This document shows positions 8,924 to 30,728 of a stretch of 38,036 nucleotides of DNA, piece after piece (within the stretch, counting starts at the first letter, position 1; the number at the start of each line of letters is the position of its first letter). Made by a program: the position numbers and the translations under genes. Under the pieces are notes generated by a model, which was given only the letters and a program-made list of their open reading frames with translations, did no database searches and was not told where the DNA came from. Origin of the DNA: a virus (Duplodnaviria > Caudoviricetes); IMG/VR virus record IMGVR_UViG_3300034073_000217, positions 1 to 38,036 of that record. One strand, 5' to 3'.

Positions 8924-9241
8924 TTAGTCTTCATCGTGTAGTGGGTCTTCTATCCACTCATCTGGCGCAACTATAGATGCTTTTTCTTTAGCTTCTTGTA
9001 CCTCTAATTTCTTATCAGTCTCCACTAAATAAGTAATCATCTTTTTTATATCACTACGTTTAGCAACAACACCTGGTTCTTTTTTACCATATCGCACTAT
9101 GTATTTAATGACATTGCCAATGTTGATAGCTTCACCACCATGAAGATGGCCAGTGAGGTTATCTTGTAACCACTGCAATTCTAAACCACGTTCTTCATCA
9201 ATTACATAATACTTTGGATACTTTGTAATCTCTTCACTCAT
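8924..9241 (-). CDS. DUF3310-like protein (family related to T7 gp1.7 nucleotide kinase)
   Basis: PKYY...GNVIKYIVRYGKK...DIKKMITYL motif. Confidence 0.7.
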   Translation of the reverse strand: MSEEITKYPKYYVIDEERGLELQWLQDNLTGHLHGGEAINIGNVIKYIVRYGKKEPGVVAKRSDIKKMITYLVETDKKLEVQEAKEKASIVAPDEWIEDPLHDED

Positions 9242-9465
9242 AACTGCTCCTCAATAATTATCATGCCTTTTTCAAACACACAAGACACACCTTTTACTTT
9301 AATATACACAGTTCCATCATCACCTAACCTATGTATTAACTTACCCTTGTGACACAATACTTCTTTTGATTCTATTGGTTCAGATGCGTAATAATACAAT
9401 CCTATACCAAAGATTAGAAAAAGTATAATCAATGCTACGATATAACTCAAGATTTTACTTACCAT
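9238..9465 (-). CDS. Membrane-anchored hypothetical protein
   Basis: N-terminal transmembrane helix, two Cys, GGAG RBS. Confidence 0.65.
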   Translation of the reverse strand: MVSKILSYIVALIILFLIFGIGLYYYASEPIESKEVLCHKGKLIHRLGDDGTVYIKVKGVSCVFEKGMIIIEEQL

Positions 9466-9500: not shown

Positions 9501-9517
9501 AAGAGTATAATTATACT
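9501..9517. promoter_or_regulatory. Palindromic, potentially bidirectional -10 element upstream of pqqA
   Basis: AGTATAATTATACT (9504-9517) is a perfect palindrome containing TATAAT on both strands; no well-spaced -35 was found. Confidence 0.55.
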
Positions 9518-9549
9518 TGTAACAAAATCTATGTAGAAAGGATAACATT

Positions 9550-9621
9550 ATGTGGACAAAACCAGTTGCAACAGAAATGAGATTTGGCTTCGAAGTTACT
9601 TTATACGTAATGAACAAGTAA
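9550..9621 (+). CDS. pqqA: Pyrroloquinoline quinone (PQQ) precursor peptide
   Basis: MWTKPVATEMRFGFEVTLYVMNK (23 aa) with the W-x-x-P, R-x-G-F and E-x-x-x-Y (E15/Y19) PqqA motifs; GAAAGGA RBS 7 nt upstream. Confidence 0.96.
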   Translation: MWTKPVATEMRFGFEVTLYVMNK

Positions 9622-9626
9622 AGTTT

Positions 9627-9660
9627 AACGGGGAACATTAAACGTTCCCCATTAATCTTT
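9627..9660. terminator. Hairpin terminator between convergent pqqA and the leftward operon
   Basis: GGGGAAC(9630-9636)-attaaac-GTTCCCC(9644-9650) stem; U-tails are weak. Confidence 0.6.
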
Positions 9661-9826
9661 GGTACATCACAGTATTATTTCTAATCCACCTAAAAGGTAT
9701 TTCAACCTTTAACAATCCTACCTGACTTTGTCGTCTAGCATGATAATGAACTATTGCATGACCAGGCAACATATGTTTATTTTCTTTAGGTATAAACCTA
9801 ATCACATTACCAAGGGACATCATCAC
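9638..9826 (-). CDS. Hypothetical protein
   Basis: 62-aa ORF in the leftward operon; exact start uncertain. Confidence 0.5.
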   Translation of the reverse strand: MMMSLGNVIRFIPKENKHMLPGHAIVHYHARRQSQVGLLKVEIPFRWIRNNTVMYQRLMGNV

Positions 9827-10046
9827 CCTCTAGTGCCGGTGCTGGTTCTTTAGCTTTATATGGCTCAGAGATTGTGCCACTCATAAATTTAGAACCATCT
9901 TTTTTAGATTCTCTAATCCATGCTGCTAACTGCTTTTCTGTACCATCTTCTAACACGATAGTGCCTGAATAATCAGGTCGTTTATCGTTACCTTGTTTAT
10001 CATTCTTAAATAACACGAATGTATTTTTGTTATCATATTCTGCCAT
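9807..10046 (-). CDS. Putative ssDNA-binding protein (DUF736-like)
   Basis: LFKN...RPDYSG...LAAW motifs and an acidic-aromatic C-terminus DDVPW typical of SSBs. Confidence 0.7.
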   Translation of the reverse strand: MAEYDNKNTFVLFKNDKQGNDKRPDYSGTIVLEDGTEKQLAAWIRESKKDGSKFMSGTISEPYKAKEPAPALEGDDVPW

Positions 10047-10048
10047 AA

Positions 10049-10675
10049 TTATTCCTTATTTAATTCTCTTAGTATATTAACGATATCATCTACCTCATCT
10101 AAAAAGATAGACACTTCTTCTTCAAGCATTTCTATATACTCATTATCACGTTCTACTGCAACGTACATGAGTTGTAGCTTAGGCTCAAAGTTTGGATTGT
10201 AAGAAACAAAGTTAGCATAGTCTGCACCAGTACAAGCAATCTGCCACTGCACCTGGCTTATATATCGACTAGGTAACTTACGTTCTAACAAATTTGTAGT
10301 ATGCGTAGTTTCGATTGGACATTTAATCTCAAGCACACCATTATCAGGTAATAGGCCATCTGGACTAGCGCCTGCCATTTTAATTATAGGATGGTCTATA
10401 AAGCCAACCTGTTTTACTTTAATATCACGAACAATCTCATATATTTGACGAGCAGTATCTTCTCTATCTATACCATCTTGCATAGCTTGGTTAGTGTAAG
10501 AGTCTGTTTTTTGTCCGGTTAATCGTTCAGTAGCAAGTTGCATCTTGTAATTTCTGCGAACTGCTGCTTCCCCTGTTTTTATTTTGGCAAGCACGTCAGA
10601 TACTCTACTTGCAGTAACCTTACCTAATCTGTGCTGATGCCATGCTTCTGAGCGTTGCTCCATATTATGTTCCAT
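10049..10675 (-). CDS. Lambda-exonuclease/YqaJ family recombination exonuclease
   Basis: QRSEAWHQHRLGKVTAS, GASPDGL, LEIKCP and QVQWQ motifs. Confidence 0.92.
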   Translation of the reverse strand: MEHNMEQRSEAWHQHRLGKVTASRVSDVLAKIKTGEAAVRRNYKMQLATERLTGQKTDSYTNQAMQDGIDREDTARQIYEIVRDIKVKQVGFIDHPIIKMAGASPDGLLPDNGVLEIKCPIETTHTTNLLERKLPSRYISQVQWQIACTGADYANFVSYNPNFEPKLQLMYVAVERDNEYIEMLEEEVSIFLDEVDDIVNILRELNKE

Positions 10676-11145
10676 TAGAATGGGTCTCCACCTTGTTGTT
10701 TAATAGCGTTGGCTACTTCTTCTACACTAGCCACCGATGTATCTATACCGATACCAAAACAACCTAATGCACGACCAATCGCTGATGTCTCACAGTTTTC
10801 TATATAGCTGGTCTTGTTAATGAATGTAGAGCCTTCTTTTTCATAAGCATGGCCAGTAGCAACAATTTGATTGTCTACAACAATAACTGCTTTGATAACG
10901 CATATACCATCTTGGTTAGATACAATATCTGTCATTATAGAACCTTTTGGATACATATCTCTAAAGGCTTTAATACGCTCATTCACCTCAACATATTCTT
11001 TGCCTTTAATATTTACAGTTCTTAACTTTGGTGCTTTTTTAGCTTCCATTTGTTGTTCCTCTTGTTGTAGTTTAGCTAAAGCTGCGTCATTGTCTGCACG
11101 CAACTCCTCTGTCATATCTTGTAATTCAGTAATTAGATTATCCAT
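10675..11145 (-). CDS. Putative single-strand annealing protein (Rad52/Sak-like)
   Basis: IKGKEYVEVNERI and ENCETSAIGRAL motifs; adjacent to the exonuclease and SSB. Confidence 0.65.
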   Translation of the reverse strand: MDNLITELQDMTEELRADNDAALAKLQQEEQQMEAKKAPKLRTVNIKGKEYVEVNERIKAFRDMYPKGSIMTDIVSNQDGICVIKAVIVVDNQIVATGHAYEKEGSTFINKTSYIENCETSAIGRALGCFGIGIDTSVASVEEVANAIKQQGGDPF

Positions 11146-14736: not shown

Positions 14737-14914
14737 ATATGTACTTGTAGTTTATATGCAAATGGATAGTCCACAATATGTAGGACACTTTACAAGCTGT
14801 GCTGCAGCTAATGAATATGTTAAAGAGCATTACAAAGATGCACCCTATACAACTTGTTTGTTTGAGGACTATATTAACTTACCAAAAGACTTGGTTAAGA
14901 AAGAAATAAAATGA
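14726..14914 (+). CDS. Hypothetical protein
   Basis: 62-aa ORF with an upstream AAGGAG. Confidence 0.6.
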   Translation: MVFEYVLVVYMQMDSPQYVGHFTSCAAANEYVKEHYKDAPYTTCLFEDYINLPKDLVKKEIK

Positions 14915-15135
14915 ACAGACAGATTAGAGAACATAAAGTCAAAGAAGCATTAGCCTCATTAGACATTGAAGGATTAAATATAAGTGATTACTTACAATCA
15001 CAACTTAATGAATACATTGCTGGTCGTATGACAACTAAGATGATGTTACAAATGTTAGACGAGTGGTATTTAACGGAAGTCGTTAAAGAACGATTGGATG
15101 GTAAAACAGTGATAGTTGATATGGAGGATTTATAA
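14911..15135 (+). CDS. VbhA/FicA-like antitoxin-family protein (orphan)
   Basis: ALASLDIEGL contains the Fic-inhibitory (S/T)xxxE(G/N) motif, followed by L..YIAGRMT as in VbhA-family proteins; 74 aa. Confidence 0.72.
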   Translation: MNRQIREHKVKEALASLDIEGLNISDYLQSQLNEYIAGRMTTKMMLQMLDEWYLTEVVKERLDGKTVIVDMEDL

Positions 15136-17522: not shown

Positions 17523-17668
17523 AAAGTCCATGCACTTATGAGTGCCACGTTATAGACGATGAATGTATCAGTTGTAAAAGAACAGTTCCAGAAATAATGA
17601 ACTGGACTAAGTTGACCGATGAGCAAAGAAAAGAGATAATGGATAGATGCTCACAACAGAAAAGCTAA
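17516..17668 (+). CDS. DUF1289-family 4-Cys (putative Fe-S/metal-binding) protein, 50 aa (not in the ORF track)
   Basis: SPCTYEC...CISCKRTVPEIMNWTKLTDEQRKEI matches the SPC-x3-C...C-x2-C-x-RT-x2-EI-x2-W pattern. Confidence 0.75.
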   Translation: MVESPCTYECHVIDDECISCKRTVPEIMNWTKLTDEQRKEIMDRCSQQKS

Positions 17669-18345
17669 ACATATTTGTAGGATACGATGGTGTAGTAGAA
17701 CCTGTGGCTTTTCATGTGTTTTGCCAAAGCGTGATAGAAAAAGCAACCATACCAGTTAGCTTTACTCCACTTGCTCTAAATACATTAAAAGGTTACACAG
17801 AAACACACAAAGACGGAAGCAACGCTTTTATCTACAGTAGGTTCTTAGTACCCTACCTCTGTGATTATAAAGGTTACGCTATCTTTGTTGATGGCGATAT
17901 GCTTTGTCGTGCAGACATAAAAGAGTTAATGGATATTATAGACCCATTGGCTGCAGTCTCAGTCGTGAAACACGATTATAAGACTAAACACCCAATCAAG
18001 TATCTAGGTTATAAGAACGAAGACTATCCTAGAAAGAATTGGTCAAGTGTCATGGTATGGAACTGTGGACACTTTAAGAATTTACAGTTGACACCTGAGA
18101 TGATAATGAACTCTACAGGTGCAGAATTACACCGATTAACATGGTTAGATAATGAGTTTATAGACTTAATTGGTGAGATACCCAAAGAATGGAACTGGTT
18201 AGTAGGGGAATACGATTACAATCCTAATGCTAAGTTAGTTCACTTTACTATAGGCACACCATGCTTTACAGACTATAGTCGTTGTGACTATGCAGAAGAG
18301 TGGGCATTTACTTTAGATAATCTATTAATACCAATGGACATATAA
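17647..18345 (+). CDS. GT-A fold glycosyltransferase (GT8-like)
   Basis: IFVGYD, FIYSRFLVP, FVDGDM (DxD), YPRKNWSS, WNWLVGEY and HFTIGTP motifs. Confidence 0.85.
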   Translation: MLTTEKLNIFVGYDGVVEPVAFHVFCQSVIEKATIPVSFTPLALNTLKGYTETHKDGSNAFIYSRFLVPYLCDYKGYAIFVDGDMLCRADIKELMDIIDPLAAVSVVKHDYKTKHPIKYLGYKNEDYPRKNWSSVMVWNCGHFKNLQLTPEMIMNSTGAELHRLTWLDNEFIDLIGEIPKEWNWLVGEYDYNPNAKLVHFTIGTPCFTDYSRCDYAEEWAFTLDNLLIPMDI

Positions 18346-19286: not shown

Positions 19287-20532
19287 GATTGAAGCAGAGT
19301 TTCCAGCTAAACTATCTTTTCTCGATGAACCACACCGATACAAAGTAGCTTATGGTGGTAGAGGAAGTGGTAAGTCATGGGGATTTGCTCGTGCATTACT
19401 AGCATTAGCGATTAAACATAAGTTAAGAATACTTTGTGCTAGGGAAGTACAACGCTCTATTAAACAATCAGTTCACCAACTGTTATCAGACCAAATACAA
19501 GCAATGGGTTTTGGTCAGTACTATGAAGTACTAGAGAATGAAATAAGATGTGTTAGTGGTAGTCAGATAAACTTTACAGGTCTTGCTAATAACACTGTAG
19601 AATCTATTAAGTCATTTGAAGGTGTAGACATTGTATGGGTAGAAGAAGCTCAGACTGTTAGTAAGAAGTCATGGGATATTCTTATTCCTACAATCAGGAA
19701 ACCTGACTCAGAGATATGGGTTACATTTAACCCTGATTTAGATTCAGATGATACATACAAACGATTTGTAATAGATACACCGGATAATGCCAAGGTAGTT
19801 AAAGTCAACTGGATTGATAATCCATGGTTTCCTAAAGTACTAAATGCAGAACGATTACACAGTAAAGCTACCTCAGATGATTACGATAACATTTGGGAAG
19901 GTGAATGTAAAACAGCCGTTGATGGCGCTATCTATGCTAACGAAATAAGAGAAGCACAAGAGAATAAACGTATTACAAACGTACCATATGACCCAGAGTT
20001 AAAGGTTCATGTGGTCATGGATTTAGGTTGGAATGACAGTATGTCAGTGATTCTATGCCAAAAAGGTGTATCAGATTTACGTATTATTAAATACATAGAA
20101 GATGACCATAGGACTTTAGATAGTTACTCTGCTGAACTAAAGAACTTACCATACAACTGGGGTCAAATGTATTTGCCACACGATGGTCAAACCAAAGACT
20201 TTAAATATGGCACATCAGCAGAAGAAATAATGAGACGACATAATTGGGATGTACGTATAGTTCCAAGACTAGATGTTGAATCAGGTATCAAACTAGCACG
20301 AATTAACTTTCATCGTTGTTACTTTGATAAATCAACAGAGCGTTTAATAGAGTGTCTTAAACACTATAGACGTTCTATTAATGCAACAACGAATGAACCA
20401 GGCGCACCACTACATGATGAATACTCTCATGGTGCTGACGCATTTAGATATTTATGTGTATCTGCTGACAAGTTCTCTAATGAGACATGGCAACATCAAG
20501 CGATACATTATCAAAACCTAGGAATTGTTTAA
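19276..20532 (+). CDS. terL: Terminase large subunit (PBSX-like family)
   Basis: YGGRGSGKS Walker A, WVEEAQ Walker B, TFNP, DLG and HGADAFRY nuclease motifs. Confidence 0.95.
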   Translation: MSIEIEAEFPAKLSFLDEPHRYKVAYGGRGSGKSWGFARALLALAIKHKLRILCAREVQRSIKQSVHQLLSDQIQAMGFGQYYEVLENEIRCVSGSQINFTGLANNTVESIKSFEGVDIVWVEEAQTVSKKSWDILIPTIRKPDSEIWVTFNPDLDSDDTYKRFVIDTPDNAKVVKVNWIDNPWFPKVLNAERLHSKATSDDYDNIWEGECKTAVDGAIYANEIREAQENKRITNVPYDPELKVHVVMDLGWNDSMSVILCQKGVSDLRIIKYIEDDHRTLDSYSAELKNLPYNWGQMYLPHDGQTKDFKYGTSAEEIMRRHNWDVRIVPRLDVESGIKLARINFHRCYFDKSTERLIECLKHYRRSINATTNEPGAPLHDEYSHGADAFRYLCVSADKFSNETWQHQAIHYQNLGIV

Positions 20533-21587
20533 TGTTATTAGCCCAAGAATATGTCCCAGACTTATCCGAATACAAGGATAGGTTTATGCGTACTCCGCTA
20601 GGATTGCTAACACAAGGCAATGTATCCGGTGCAGTAGATAGATTGGGCGTAGATGCACAAGGCAGAGTTCAGGCAATGATGAATCCTGAGTCTGCATTAC
20701 AAACTGGTTTTGATTTTATGGGTGGTGGAATATTAGGTCAAACAGCTTATCATGGCACACCTCATATATTTAGTAAGTTTGATGCAAGTAAAGTTGGAAC
20801 AGGTCAAGGCGCACAATCTTATGGCCATGGAATATATTTTGCTGAAAACCCTGCTGTTGCTAAAGAATATCAAAGACAGTTATCTGGATGGCAACCTGGA
20901 ACACAAAGCTCAATAAATCAATCAGGTGGTGATTTGGATGCAGCAATAAATGAAGTGCAAAGAAAAATAACACATTATCAAGGACTATTAGAATCAGGAA
21001 ATGTTCCTAAAGAAAGAGCGCAATCTCTTTTAGACATAAGCACAAATCAATTAAATGATTTACAAGCAATGAAGTCAGGAATTCCTGAAAGTAAAGGTTC
21101 TTTTTACACTGTAGATATTCCTGATGAGTACATTCCAAAAATGATTAATTGGGACAAAACTATTGGACAACAGTCACCAGAAGTTAAACAAGCAATACAA
21201 AACACAAGAAACGATTTAACTGAAAATAACATAGCAGATTTAGGTGGAGACACATCTTTATTATATGGAGATGATGTATCAGTTGAACAATTTTTAAATA
21301 CATGGTCTGCATTAAAAGGAGCAGATGATGCAGGTGAAAAACTACTAAATAAGTATGGAGTGCCTGGGGTTAAGTATTTAGATGAAGGAAGCAGAAATAC
21401 ATTTAAAGCACAATTAACTTATAAAGGTAAACCATATAGTGATGTAGTAGAATTTAAATCAAAAAATCTATTAGATGATTATATAAAAGAAAACAAAGCA
21501 AAAGGTTTTGGTGTAGACATAATACCAGGAACATCAAATTATGTAGTGTTTGACCCAACCAATGTCAAAATACTAGAACGAAAATAA
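20532..21587 (+). CDS. ADP-ribosyltransferase-like protein (polyvalent-protein ART-type domain)
   Basis: AYHGTPH.F.KFD...GTGQGAQSYGHGIYFAE and C-terminal GVKYLD...NYVVFDP; TAATG coupling places the start at 20532. Confidence 0.65.
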   Translation: MLLAQEYVPDLSEYKDRFMRTPLGLLTQGNVSGAVDRLGVDAQGRVQAMMNPESALQTGFDFMGGGILGQTAYHGTPHIFSKFDASKVGTGQGAQSYGHGIYFAENPAVAKEYQRQLSGWQPGTQSSINQSGGDLDAAINEVQRKITHYQGLLESGNVPKERAQSLLDISTNQLNDLQAMKSGIPESKGSFYTVDIPDEYIPKMINWDKTIGQQSPEVKQAIQNTRNDLTENNIADLGGDTSLLYGDDVSVEQFLNTWSALKGADDAGEKLLNKYGVPGVKYLDEGSRNTFKAQLTYKGKPYSDVVEFKSKNLLDDYIKENKAKGFGVDIIPGTSNYVVFDPTNVKILERK

Positions 21588-25965: not shown

Positions 25966-26292
25966 ATGGCTATATTATTCGATAAAGACCCATTAACAGG
26001 CGTTACGCAATATTACGATTACGACCCTATTAATGACATCCACATGATACACAATGTGCAAGACTTTACTCCACTTGTGGAGAAGTTAAAGCAAGCACAG
26101 AACAACCCAGATGTATGGGCAAAAAGTGTTAAAGAATCATGGGTACACTATGCAAGTATCCCACCAGTCATTGAGATGCAGTTAAAACAAAAAGGCATAG
26201 ACATTTATAATAAAGACCAAACAAAAGAATTACTCAAAGAAATAAATACAAACTATCCTTGGTTAAAAACAACAACTAAAAAGCATGGATAG
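25966..26292 (+). CDS. Conserved hypothetical virion-module protein
   Basis: QD..P...WVHYASIP...LKT pattern typical of the gene after this capsid type. Confidence 0.7.
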   Translation: MAILFDKDPLTGVTQYYDYDPINDIHMIHNVQDFTPLVEKLKQAQNNPDVWAKSVKESWVHYASIPPVIEMQLKQKGIDIYNKDQTKELLKEINTNYPWLKTTTKKHG

Positions 26293-27613
26293 AAAAGAAT
26301 TACAAAGAATACAATTAGCAATACATGATTTAGTTAATCGAGAAGATTACACAAATGCTCTTCCGTTAATTAATACAGCTTTAGAACATTATCCTGATAA
26401 TGATGCAACTCTAAACTTTATGGGTTACATTCATTTAATGGGTGACCAACCGGCATTAGCTTATCAATACTTCAGACGTGCATTACAAGAGAGTCCAGGC
26501 AACAAAGCATTATGGACATCACTAGGTCGTGCATACCATGAGTTAGATAAGTTTGAAGATGCTATTAAATGTTTTCTAAAGTCAGCAGAATTAGACCCTA
26601 CATACACATTAGCTTACAGTAATGCAGCAGCTAGTTTTGTGCAAATATCAGAATGGAAGAATGCAGAGGATGTCTGTAACCTAGCATTACAAGCTGACCC
26701 TAATGACCAGAACGCTAACATGAACCTTGCTCATGCTTATTTAGCACAAGGTAAATGGAAAGAAGGTTGGAAACAATGGGGACTATCACTCGGTAGTAAG
26801 TTTAGAAAAGAATGGCATTATGGTGATGAAAGCCGTTGGGATGGCCAAGCAGGTAAAGACATTATCATCTATGGTGAACAAGGTTTAGGTGATGAAATAT
26901 TCTATGCTAACTGTTTATCTGATGCGATTGCAATTAGTAACAAAGTCTATATTGATTGTGACCCAAAGCTAGAAGGTTTATTTAAACGTAGCTTTCCATT
27001 AGCAGAAGTGCATGGAACACGCAGAGATGAACATCCTGAATGGTTAGTAAATAAAACATTTGACCATCGTTGTGCAATCGGTGGATTACCGGAGTTCTTT
27101 AGACATAACTCTAAAGACTTTCCTCGTGAGACCTATCTTGTTGCAGACCCTGAAAGAAGACAAATGTGGCGCAGTCTATTTGATTCATGGGGTAAAAAAG
27201 TCATTGGTATTACTACACATGGAGGTAGTAAAAGAACTAATGAAAAAGGTAGAAAACTTACAAAAGATGATATACAATCATTATTGAATCGTAAAGATTT
27301 GATTTTAATTTCATTAGATTACGTAGTCGATGAGAAGATAGATGGGGTGAAGTATTTTCCATTTGCTACGCAATCATTTGATTATGATGATACTGCAGCA
27401 CTTATTGCTGAATTAGATGCAGTTGTTGGTGTCAATACGACCGCATTACATTGTTCAGCTGCATTAGGTGTTAAAACTATCTGTTTAGTACCTAAATGGC
27501 ATCAATGGAGATATGCTCAACCGAGTATGCCTTGGTATCGTAGTATGAAGTTACTATATCAAGAAAATCGTTCTTGGCAACAAGTTATTCAACAGGTTAG
27601 TGGATGGGTTTAG
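26285..27613 (+). CDS. TPR-repeat protein with C-terminal GT-B (GT9-like) glycosyltransferase domain
   Basis: About five TPRs, then EQGLGDEI, LFKRSFP and DTAALIAELDAVVGVNTTALHCSAALG...WRY...PWY. Confidence 0.85.
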   Translation: MDRKELQRIQLAIHDLVNREDYTNALPLINTALEHYPDNDATLNFMGYIHLMGDQPALAYQYFRRALQESPGNKALWTSLGRAYHELDKFEDAIKCFLKSAELDPTYTLAYSNAAASFVQISEWKNAEDVCNLALQADPNDQNANMNLAHAYLAQGKWKEGWKQWGLSLGSKFRKEWHYGDESRWDGQAGKDIIIYGEQGLGDEIFYANCLSDAIAISNKVYIDCDPKLEGLFKRSFPLAEVHGTRRDEHPEWLVNKTFDHRCAIGGLPEFFRHNSKDFPRETYLVADPERRQMWRSLFDSWGKKVIGITTHGGSKRTNEKGRKLTKDDIQSLLNRKDLILISLDYVVDEKIDGVKYFPFATQSFDYDDTAALIAELDAVVGVNTTALHCSAALGVKTICLVPKWHQWRYAQPSMPWYRSMKLLYQENRSWQQVIQQVSGWV

Positions 27614-28365
27614 GTGATTGGCTAATGGCTTCTGCTGAAGTAAAAGAAGCTAATGAACGAACAGGTAAAAAGGTTGCTTTAGGTAATGGCAATAAAGCAT
27701 TTTTTGAACCACAGATATTTGCTAATAATCCTAGAATGGCATTAGACGATAAAGAAGAAATAGAGTGGGTTCATAACTATCCTGGCAAACGTCCTTATAT
27801 GCACGGAACAGAAAATGGTAAGATTATCTTTAATGATGATTACAAACCAATGCCAGGTGAGATATTCTTTAGCGACAAAGAATTAGATAAGATAAACGAT
27901 ATTGATAAAGACTATATTGTTGTTGAACCTAATGTTAAAACAACTTACATACACACAGTCAATAAGTCTTGGGATAAATGGAAAGAGTTACTGCAATACG
28001 ACTTACCATGGATTCAGTTTAATACAGGCAAACAATACACTAAAACAATACAAACAAATACATTTAGAGATGCTTTAATAGTGTTAAAGAAAGCTAAACT
28101 ATTTGTAGGAACAGATGGTGGTTTACATCATGCAGCAGCAGCATTAGGAATACCATCAGTTGTGATATGGTCTGGATTCACAAGTCCTAAACATCTAGGA
28201 TATGACTTTCATACAAACATACATGATGGCAGTAAACCTTGTGGTAAATTTAAAGAAATATGTAAGCACTGCGAAGAAAAGCGTAAGGCCATTAGTGTTG
28301 AAACTGTTTATGAGGCAATAAGGAAAGAACTTGCAAATAATACTAACTGGAGTGGAAAGACGTGA
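27604..28365 (+). CDS. Glycosyltransferase family 9-like (heptosyltransferase fold)
   Basis: MGLGDWLM N-terminus and FVGTDGGLHHAAAALGIPSVVIW. Confidence 0.85.
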   Translation: MGLGDWLMASAEVKEANERTGKKVALGNGNKAFFEPQIFANNPRMALDDKEEIEWVHNYPGKRPYMHGTENGKIIFNDDYKPMPGEIFFSDKELDKINDIDKDYIVVEPNVKTTYIHTVNKSWDKWKELLQYDLPWIQFNTGKQYTKTIQTNTFRDALIVLKKAKLFVGTDGGLHHAAAALGIPSVVIWSGFTSPKHLGYDFHTNIHDGSKPCGKFKEICKHCEEKRKAISVETVYEAIRKELANNTNWSGKT

Positions 28366-29044
28366 TAAATGTCTACTTCGTTTAAATCAATACGCAAAAG
28401 CAGAAGTAGTAAAGCAGTGGAATGGTGAAGATATACCTATTATTGTAGGTAATTTAAATAACTGCGATAACATTCAAGTAGAGTGCCGTAAACAAAATAT
28501 TCCTTATATCTATATTGACCATGGTTATTTTAATCGTGAGTTTAATTTAAGTTGGGCTAGATTCTGTATCAACAATTATCATTGCACAGATTGGAGGCCA
28601 TCTAATCGTGACATACCAAAGATAAAAGAATATAGAAAAGGTGATGATATAGTTATATTACCACCGGCAGATAAAGTAGCATTTGTTTACAAGGCTCATA
28701 ATTGGTTAGATAAAACCATAGAACAGATTAGACAATATTCTGACCGCAAAATTATTATCAAACGCAAATCAGAAGGTGCATTACTGAATGCAATTAAAAA
28801 TGCTCACTGTGTAGTTAGTTTTGGCAGTGTTGCTGATGTAGAGGCAAGTGTACATGGAGTTCCTGTAATTGTATCTGATTACAGTCCTGCAGCACCAATT
28901 TCAAACAAATTAGAAGATATAGAAAAATTAACATATCCTGATAGAGAACCATGGTTAAGGTCATTAGCAGCAGCAGAATGGCATCAAAACGAAATGGACA
29001 AATGTTGGGAACGATTAAAAGGGCAATTAGATGGCATTTACTAA
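28331..29044 (+). CDS. Putative GT-B glycosyltransferase (capsule-biosynthesis-like)
   Basis: YIYIDHGYF and AHCVVSFGSVADVEASVHGVPV motifs; third gene of the GT cluster. Confidence 0.6.
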   Translation: MQIILTGVERRDKCLLRLNQYAKAEVVKQWNGEDIPIIVGNLNNCDNIQVECRKQNIPYIYIDHGYFNREFNLSWARFCINNYHCTDWRPSNRDIPKIKEYRKGDDIVILPPADKVAFVYKAHNWLDKTIEQIRQYSDRKIIIKRKSEGALLNAIKNAHCVVSFGSVADVEASVHGVPVIVSDYSPAAPISNKLEDIEKLTYPDREPWLRSLAAAEWHQNEMDKCWERLKGQLDGIY

Positions 29045-30045: not shown

Positions 30046-30086
30046 TGATATAATAACGGAAACTTTAATATGAGGAATCCGTTATG
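30046..30086 (+). promoter_or_regulatory. Extended -10 promoter and start-codon-sequestering hairpin of the HNH gene
   Basis: TG-a-TATAAT at 30046-30054; ATAACGGA (30053-30060) pairs with TCCGTTAT (30078-30085), covering the ATG at 30084 and enclosing GAGGA. Confidence 0.65.
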
Positions 30087-30728
30087 TATCAAGGGAAAAG
30101 GCATCATAATTGTAAATTATCTTATGACGATGAATTAAAAGTCATAGAAAAATATAAAGAAGGTTTAAGTTTAGCTGCTGTTGGCGAAATGTTTAATGTC
30201 AATTTTGTAACAATACGAAATGTTCTTAAAGGACATAATGTTGAACGCAGAAGACAAGGTAATAAAACTAAAATATTTAATGAAAAATTTACTAATACAG
30301 TAATTGATTTATTTCAAAACGGATTAAGTCAAGAAAAAATAGCTAAACAATTAAAAACATCACAAACACAAATATCAAGATTATTAAAATTTAATGGAAT
30401 TGATTCAGGTGTTAGAAGTGGTATAAACCATCATGCGTGGAAAGGTGGAAAACATATTAGAAATGGATATGTTTTTGTGTCAATAACAAAAGATTCACCT
30501 TACTCTAGCATGGCAATATCTAATGGTTATGTAATGGAACATAGGTTGGTGATGGCACAACACTTAAAAAGACCTTTAGAACCACATGAAACAGTACATC
30601 ATATTAATGGTAATACACAAGACAATAGAATAGAAAATTTACAATTAAGACATGGGAAACATGGTAAGCATCAAGTATTTGTATGCTGTAACTGTGGCTC
30701 TCATAATGTTAAATCAACAACTTTATAG
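30084..30728 (+). CDS. Free-standing HNH homing endonuclease with two N-terminal HTH repeats
   Basis: WKGG, GYVMEHRLVM..HL.RPL...ETVHHINGNTQDNRIENL; more AT-rich than the flanking tail genes. Confidence 0.9.
   Translation: MYQGKRHHNCKLSYDDELKVIEKYKEGLSLAAVGEMFNVNFVTIRNVLKGHNVERRRQGNKTKIFNEKFTNTVIDLFQNGLSQEKIAKQLKTSQTQISRLLKFNGIDSGVRSGINHHAWKGGKHIRNGYVFVSITKDSPYSSMAISNGYVMEHRLVMAQHLKRPLEPHETVHHINGNTQDNRIENLQLRHGKHGKHQVFVCCNCGSHNVKSTTL

Follow-up and report, generated by a model that had tools for sequence, protein, structure and literature searches.

The locus considered here raises the question of why a tailed phage should carry, by itself, a gene for PqqA, the peptide from which the cofactor PQQ is made. 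The answer that we consider probable, if not strongly so, is that phage pqqA acts as a precursor subsidy to host PQQ synthesis, so keeping methanol dehydrogenase working during infection; the evidence on this proposal and on its alternatives comes principally from comparisons of sequence.

The window, i.e. the whole 38,036-nt stretch analysed (IMG/VR record IMGVR_UViG_3300034073_000217), is the 38-kb genome of a podovirus-like tailed phage, 99% complete by CheckV, with genes for terminase, portal, capsid, tail, holin and endolysin; no tRNA gene was found in it. The contig ends (1-1029 and 37001-38036) repeat the same genes, i.e. two alleles of the gene for a 137-aa protein and of the start of an ejection-protein gene, and match exactly over ~125 nt, after which similarity over 1 kb is only 79%; the assembly thus mixes related strains at its ends, which suggests that it continued past the point of circular closure into a second strain. 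Elsewhere in the window, a 366-aa protein encoded between terminase and portal (20487-21587) gives an ART-PolyVal (ADP-ribosyltransferase of polyvalent proteins) match above cut-off, a TPR-containing protein and GT9-like and GT8-like glycosyltransferases are encoded near capsid/tail genes (26285-29044 and 17647-18345), possibly for virion glycosylation, and a 74-aa ORF (14911-15135) has a VbhA antitoxin-like match above cut-off, with no Fic partner among the proteins scanned. An HNH endonuclease gene among the tail genes (30084-30728) has a counterpart of 74% identity at the corresponding position of the uncultured phage ctXG6705 and is likely a mobile homing gene, most of its neighbours being far less alike to those of ctXG6705.

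The pqqA gene (9550-9621, plus strand) is an intact 72-nt ORF of 23 codons, which falls under the 60-aa limit of the ORF listing; as stated in the original prediction, it lies outside the ORF track, and it encodes exactly the peptide quoted there. Its assignment as encoding the 23-aa PQQ precursor is based on HMM scores, conservation and dN/dS. The profile search proposed as a check gave scores above both cut-offs (35.4 bits for Pfam PF08042, cut-off 21.1; 34.4 bits for TIGR02107, cut-off 20), and an E-x-x-x-Y pair, Glu15 and Tyr19, is present near the C terminus. PHROGs contains no family for the peptide, and its exact sequence is absent from a collection of 15 billion proteins, an absence that says little for a gene so short. 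A 59-codon antisense frame over pqqA was considered as a gene, but only 7 of 68 relatives have it open, and it is probably not one.

The RBS, the TATAAT and the downstream hairpin claimed for the gene were all located. A Shine-Dalgarno-like GAAAGGA (9536-9542, plus strand) lies 7 nt 5' of the ATG, and an RBS-like word is found in 50 of 54 distinct relatives. The rightward TATAAT (9506-9511, plus strand), the predicted pqqA promoter, is inside a perfect 14-bp palindrome (9504-9517) with a -10 hexamer on each strand, the leftward one (9510-9515, minus strand) being the predicted promoter of the downstream leftward genes. A promoter scan calls the leftward promoter at the palindrome (10/12 matches), not the rightward one, which has neither a canonical -35 nor a TG, a point that counts against a subsidy; promoter-like matches around pqqA are also no more frequent than chance (5 versus 6.1 expected). 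A rightward -10 situated 30-65 nt upstream of the ATG is, however, present in all 54 distinct relatives, versus 25.6 in shuffles (maximum 37). A hairpin downstream of pqqA occurs in 53 of the 54, versus 32 in one shuffle; in the window it is G+C-rich (9630-9650, within a predicted terminator at 9625-9655) and has a terminator score on either strand, the higher one being for the leftward operon, and terminators predicted in the pqqA region number 3, versus 0.4 in shuffles. It is thus likely a bidirectional intrinsic terminator common to pqqA and the leftward operon, at which the predicted leftward exonuclease-SSB and rightward pqqA transcripts likely both end, with the putative divergent promoter pair likely restarting the leftward genes. 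The predicted transcript (9515-9670), when folded, has no unusual structure (z -1.46).

The antisense position of pqqA in a leftward early operon was also confirmed, the genes at 9238-9465, 9638-9826 and 9807-10046 all being on the minus strand. The first of these, a 75-aa ORF divergent from pqqA, is the first gene past the predicted leftward promoter; the second, a 62-aa ORF convergent with pqqA, is variable in the lineage (homologues in 8 of 80 relatives); and the third, assigned from PHROG matches, encodes a single-strand DNA-binding protein (SSB) and is the usual convergent neighbour of pqqA in the lineage (homologues in 57 of 80). A YqaJ/RecE-like exonuclease gene (10049-10675, minus strand) follows, and then a gene for a 156-aa protein (10675-11145, minus strand), which matches PHROG families of unknown function and from its position is likely a single-strand annealing protein, since it occupies the place of the annotated Sak-like gene of phage Venkman and of the Erf gene of ctXG6705. 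Genes for PqqB, C, D and E, predicted to be missing from the genome, were found in the window neither by six-frame HMM search, for which PqqC and PqqE controls were positive in four of five host genomes, nor by tblastn with an annotated operon; the window gene is therefore an orphan pqqA, not part of a pqqABCDE operon.

A gene of this kind could in principle be an assembly chimera or a recent neutral host insert, and the mixing of related strains at the contig ends would be in keeping with such an origin. To examine conservation at the locus, relatives were taken as the best 80 of 228 IMG/VR matches to the exonuclease (56-94% identity), a pqqA-blind marker; they are kin, and do not count as independent events. 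An intact antisense pqqA, 265-1210 nt downstream of the exonuclease gene, is present in 69 of the 80; of the other 11, one has a broken copy and in ten the contig stops at most 1165 nt from the exonuclease gene. Among relatives with at least 1300 nt downstream of it, pqqA is intact in 61 of 62 and broken in one, and on these counts it is close to a core gene of the phage lineage of the window. The synteny sought by the original prediction extends to the cultured phage Venkman and to ctXG6705, in both of which pqqA is at the same site and in the same orientation, and in contigs from separate studies pqqA is continuous with the SSB gene on one side and with the leftward genes on the other. A chimeric host insert, named at the outset among the findings that would tell against the prediction, is ruled against by all three lines of evidence, and we give the chimera or neutral-insert explanation almost no weight. 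The one broken copy (L548:1860-1886) leaves frame after Thr17, with loss of Tyr19 and the terminator, by either deletion or misassembly; three other relatives (L554, L555 and L562) have a divergent PqqA type (Ile/Leu10, Met14, Ile16, Ala18) at the same locus, which hints at replacement from another donor.

Conservation of the peptide was assessed in 70 copies located by tblastn, because motif-based picking requires the Glu and Tyr and would be circular. All 70 aligned copies have both Glu15 and Tyr19, and W2, T3, P5, E9, R11 and G13 are likewise invariant in them. For 42 distinct coding sequences, pS is 0.48 and pN 0.09 (pN/pS 0.19, dN/dS ~0.13), and the substitution pattern indicates that phage pqqA is under purifying selection. 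It has also to be considered whether pqqA is kept as DNA, i.e. as a 72-nt homology patch common to the host and other phages and used in recombination or integration, the peptide being incidental. The adjoining exonuclease and SSB genes, the many pqqA copies of the hosts and the confinement of allele swaps to the coding sequence could all be accommodated in this way; however, a pS of 0.48 against a pN of 0.09 is the reverse of selection on DNA identity, the RBS, -10 and hairpin are conserved, and in other lineages pqqA adjoins capsid, terminase or polymerase genes. Nor was a tyrosine integrase (PF00589) found in the window, with 14 of 14 controls positive, or among 80 scanned pqqA-neighbour proteins, and no serine integrase was seen among the protein annotations of the window; the candidate reading of the locus as an attP or integration-site remnant of a temperate phage was rejected for lack of an integrase. 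Retention as DNA is, we consider, very improbable.

The allele swaps concern near-identical phages. Two relatives, L496 and L497, have no differences in 160 flanking nt, but 11 in the 72 coding nt of pqqA, and the window has three flank differences and 7-11 coding differences from each of them; the window, L496 and L497 peptides each lack a different methionine of the host-type peptide. The clustering of these codon changes suggests allele exchange. That such phages swap several codons only inside the pqqA coding sequence could also be expected of a decoy or modulator, i.e. a peptide occupying PqqD/PqqE or a host sensor without yielding PQQ, and co-expression of host pqqA with defence systems is reported in PMC11118758. 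By contrast, Glu15, Tyr19 and the N-terminal leader, to which a role in binding PqqD is ascribed in the available text of PMC10906245, are invariant, the commonest phage peptide is also the commonest host peptide, and changes in 65 close pairs are mostly synonymous (82 versus 29). The higher rate of change in the coding sequence than in the flanks (0.029 versus 0.019 per site) is biased by the picking of pairs on flank identity and is no proof of diversifying selection. A decoy role thus appears improbable. The number of peptide variants, 23 in 57 phage cassettes versus 4 in 18 host copies (the latter found by HMM, as pattern-found host copies are biased low in variation), does mean that the phage peptides are more variable than those of hosts, which counts to some extent against the precursor subsidy itself.

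With respect to the host, the Methylophilaceae-type character originally ascribed to the peptide is supported in that, for the near-exact peptide in bacteria, 69 of the first 80 of 123 listed loci are titled Methylophilaceae; the remaining 11 comprise nine with higher-rank names only and two from an Acidovorax-labelled MAG. The window shares 21 of its 58 proteins, and the antisense position of pqqA, with Venkman, a phage of OM43, as would be expected from the methylotroph host that had been predicted, and a methylophilacean host is well supported by these comparisons. A terminase search against GenBank phages gave distant matches only, and no host clue. Sequencing runs that contain about half of the words of the region are riverine, freshwater, estuarine and marine. 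The peptide is identical to a common host variant at 21 of 23 residues, the two substitutions being Val6 and Leu18, and the exact window variant is not among the host copies examined. Like the window gene, Methylophilaceae chromosomal pqqA (PF08042/TIGR02107), especially in its dispersed stand-alone copies, encodes 23 aa and has an RBS, a downstream hairpin and no adjacent pqqB; host copies mostly stand alone with RBS and terminator, and pqqB is found just downstream in 16 of 131 matches, many of these loci being short. The self-contained cassette of the original prediction is therefore present in layout, but its design is host-like rather than phage-specific, being also the normal layout of the hosts' extra copies; the window gene differs from these in being phage-borne, antisense in an early operon, and in sharing its promoter and terminator elements. 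The five host genomes have 1-5 pqqA copies, with 3-5 beside a single pqqC and pqqE in four of the five, and 3-12 copies are reported for Methylophilaceae (PMC4109929, seen in part). Upstream of the pqqA at one host-side locus (L198), from an assembly labelled Gammaproteobacteria, the sequence resembles that of viral loci L074 and L116, and the locus is possibly on a phage contig.

The distribution of pqqA among described phages is narrow with respect to host. A tblastn search of 50,697 GenBank phage records with the window peptide gave 12 matches, and the set was unchanged with a divergent PqqA query; it consists of nine Methylophilaceae/Methylophilales phage records, ctXG6705, and two contigs labelled Acinetobacter phage MD-2021a. 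The nine records represent six phages (MEP301, MEP401, MEP402, Venkman, P19250A and Melnitz, the last with four isolates), with genomes of 35-141 kb. Their pqqA ORFs, and that of ctXG6705, are intact, encode 23-24 aa and have an RBS, yet pqqA is unannotated in the methylophage records opened, five of which have no feature there, while in Melnitz-1 and ctXG6705 a hypothetical gene is called on the opposite strand. In Melnitz-1 (L250:2995-3069) the masked pqqA directly precedes a tRNA-Leu gene on the same strand. One of the Acinetobacter-labelled records (L492, CAKLQF020000010.1), when opened, proved to be a bacterial contig with ppk and a full pqqABCDE operon; apart from these two contigs, neither query matched a phage of any other host in the collection. 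There was also no match for the methylophages MEP431-434, HIM624-A, phiMB624-A, Venkman EXVC038S, MG-MTP1 and RSA-MFP1, names taken from NCBI taxonomy, which may be absent from the collection. In Venkman and in ctXG6705, which shares 24 of 58 proteins with the window, pqqA is antisense just downstream of the same exonuclease module, as in the window; by contrast, its orientation and neighbours differ in the other cultured methylophages.

The occurrence of pqqA in unrelated phage types, understated in the original prediction, is likewise indicated by comparison of uncultured viruses. Estimates from the matches listed in IMG/VR pattern scans are of ~310 stretches with the near-exact peptide, ~2,400 of the Glu9 type and ~460 of Asp9 types, with a total of ~2,900 pattern matches. 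When viral pqqA loci were clustered by shared proteins, a requirement of three such proteins left 47 groups, a requirement of two 28 groups, and of one 6 groups. Antisense pqqA is characteristic of the Venkman-like group alone (47 of 90 loci); in the next three largest groups it is mostly co-oriented. The scanned neighbour proteins (80 of 117 selected) include terminases, capsids, a T4-type polymerase, tails and lysins. No pqqB-E gene was found at 240 viral loci of at least 4 kb, some contigs being counted twice, versus 11 of 76 host loci with such genes. The other PqqA types (L372-L491; the ~460 estimated stretches) also lie beside phage genes, in L422 and L443 beside lambda-like tail genes.

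Because of these other types, methanol need not be the only driver, and it may be that the peptide is converted to PQQ but the benefit lies elsewhere, e.g. in a redox protectant, another quinoprotein, or a released shared good that supports the host population. The hosts of the phages with other PqqA types, found beside phage hallmark genes, may be non-methylotrophs; moreover, PQQ is described as improving stress tolerance (PMC7936290) and high-affinity PQQ import as widespread (PMC12124388), in the parts of these papers available. On the other hand, cultured phages of Pseudomonas, Klebsiella and Acinetobacter, PQQ-making genera whose phages are numerous in the collection, gave no match, and the gene is carried chiefly where the host depends on a quinoprotein for its living. 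A benefit of this other kind is on the whole unlikely, although less so than the decoy and DNA-based alternatives.

Thus, the precursor subsidy remains the reading that we prefer. The identity and intactness of the gene, the purifying selection on it, its phage context and wide spread and the absence of pqqB-E are established, and as a host-type metabolic gene among phage genes in a bona fide phage genome, kept by selection, it qualifies as an auxiliary metabolic gene (AMG). One PqqA peptide gives one PQQ, whereas the processing enzymes are reusable. It is proposed that the phage would express pqqA from its own predicted promoter, so providing extra precursor, and that PqqD/E/B/C of the predicted Methylophilaceae host would convert the phage peptide to PQQ; host pqqA output may fall or become limiting after takeover, in which case a 72-nt gene would be the cheapest way to restore PQQ flux, and the benefit would come through XoxF/MxaF, the step at which carbon and energy presumably enter the metabolism of these hosts. 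Published work, as far as the text available extends, is consistent with several of these steps: PqqE with PqqD cross-links the Glu and Tyr of PqqA, the leader of which is bound by PqqD (PMC10906245); xoxF is the top transcript in OM43 (PMC5120137); PQQ synthesis in Hyphomicrobium is tracked by pqqA expression (PMC9851590); and in Gluconobacter more PQQ was made when pqqA was overexpressed, an effect exceeded only by that of pqqB (cited in PMC7936290). The last result also counts against the proposal, in that PqqA is not the strongest single limiting gene in Gluconobacter. Further, the hosts already own several pqqA copies, to which one more may add little, and PQQ already bound to enzyme may persist for longer than a lytic cycle.

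In four metatranscriptome assemblies, for which contigs only were used, there is one exact 162-nt piece of the window at depth 6, which is compatible with DNA carry-over; one RNA library also has a pqqA piece of relative type (depth 22), for which the matches among 670 loci are four viral and no host ones, DNA carry-over again being possible. The RNA runs X16, X17, X19 and X20 contain only 5-10% of the words of the region; their high-depth pqqA contigs (176-2,672) were rejected as this phage's because they differ at 11 sites, and the X20 contig, the upstream flank of which resembles host loci L155, L163 and L234, is no evidence for this phage. Contig depth cannot, in any case, be used to rank genes.

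The novelty of the finding was overstated earlier: Coutinho et al. 2020 (PMC7678222), in the portion available, already reported viral PqqA in VP_266, a T4-like Lake Baikal population with a predicted Methylophilaceae host, and proposed that it raises PQQ and methanol oxidation. VP_266 is a metagenomic virus that is said also to encode methanol dehydrogenase, whereas the window is podovirus-like, of 38 kb, and has pqqA alone. The intact pqqA of P19250A is at odds with the statement in the same text that P19250A encodes none of its AMGs. In PMC13188868, viral pqqA, pqqD and pqqE are counted among phosphorus-cycle AMGs, and main texts on MEP301, MEP401/402, Melnitz, MG-MTP1 and viral methane AMGs do not mention a phage pqq gene. 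In the literature covered, mostly outside subscription journals and supplements, no paper was found that states pqqA to be general among methylotroph phages. What is added here beyond print is the near-core status of pqqA and its occurrence in phages that are in culture and open to test; until now phage-borne pqqA existed as an annotation of metagenomes, and intact copies in six cultured phages with cultured hosts make its role directly testable.

The model AMG is cyanophage psbA, which encodes a full protein with demonstrated expression and function. Like psbA, pqqA is a host-derived gene for a consumable part of the main energy pathway of the host, and is found in unrelated phage families; by contrast with psbA, its product is a substrate peptide, the expression and function of which are only proposed here. 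It is possible, although on balance doubtful, that pqqA is the psbA of methylotroph phages, i.e. a 72-nt near-universal core gene, repeatedly acquired by unrelated Methylophilaceae tailed phages and missed by gene callers, which would raise PQQ output in infected cells, serve as a host marker on thousands of uncultured viral contigs and give viral infection a real part in the PQQ supply of lakes and coastal waters. As pqqA shows, AMG surveys miss genes below gene-calling limits, and it would allow hosts to be assigned cheaply to an estimated 2,400 IMG/VR stretches. A phage that supplies only the consumable peptide of a host RiPP-type pathway would have about the smallest possible AMG, and, among cultured phages, pqqA is restricted to those of obligate methylotroph hosts, which suggests that infection of such hosts is limited by the supply of PQQ precursor.
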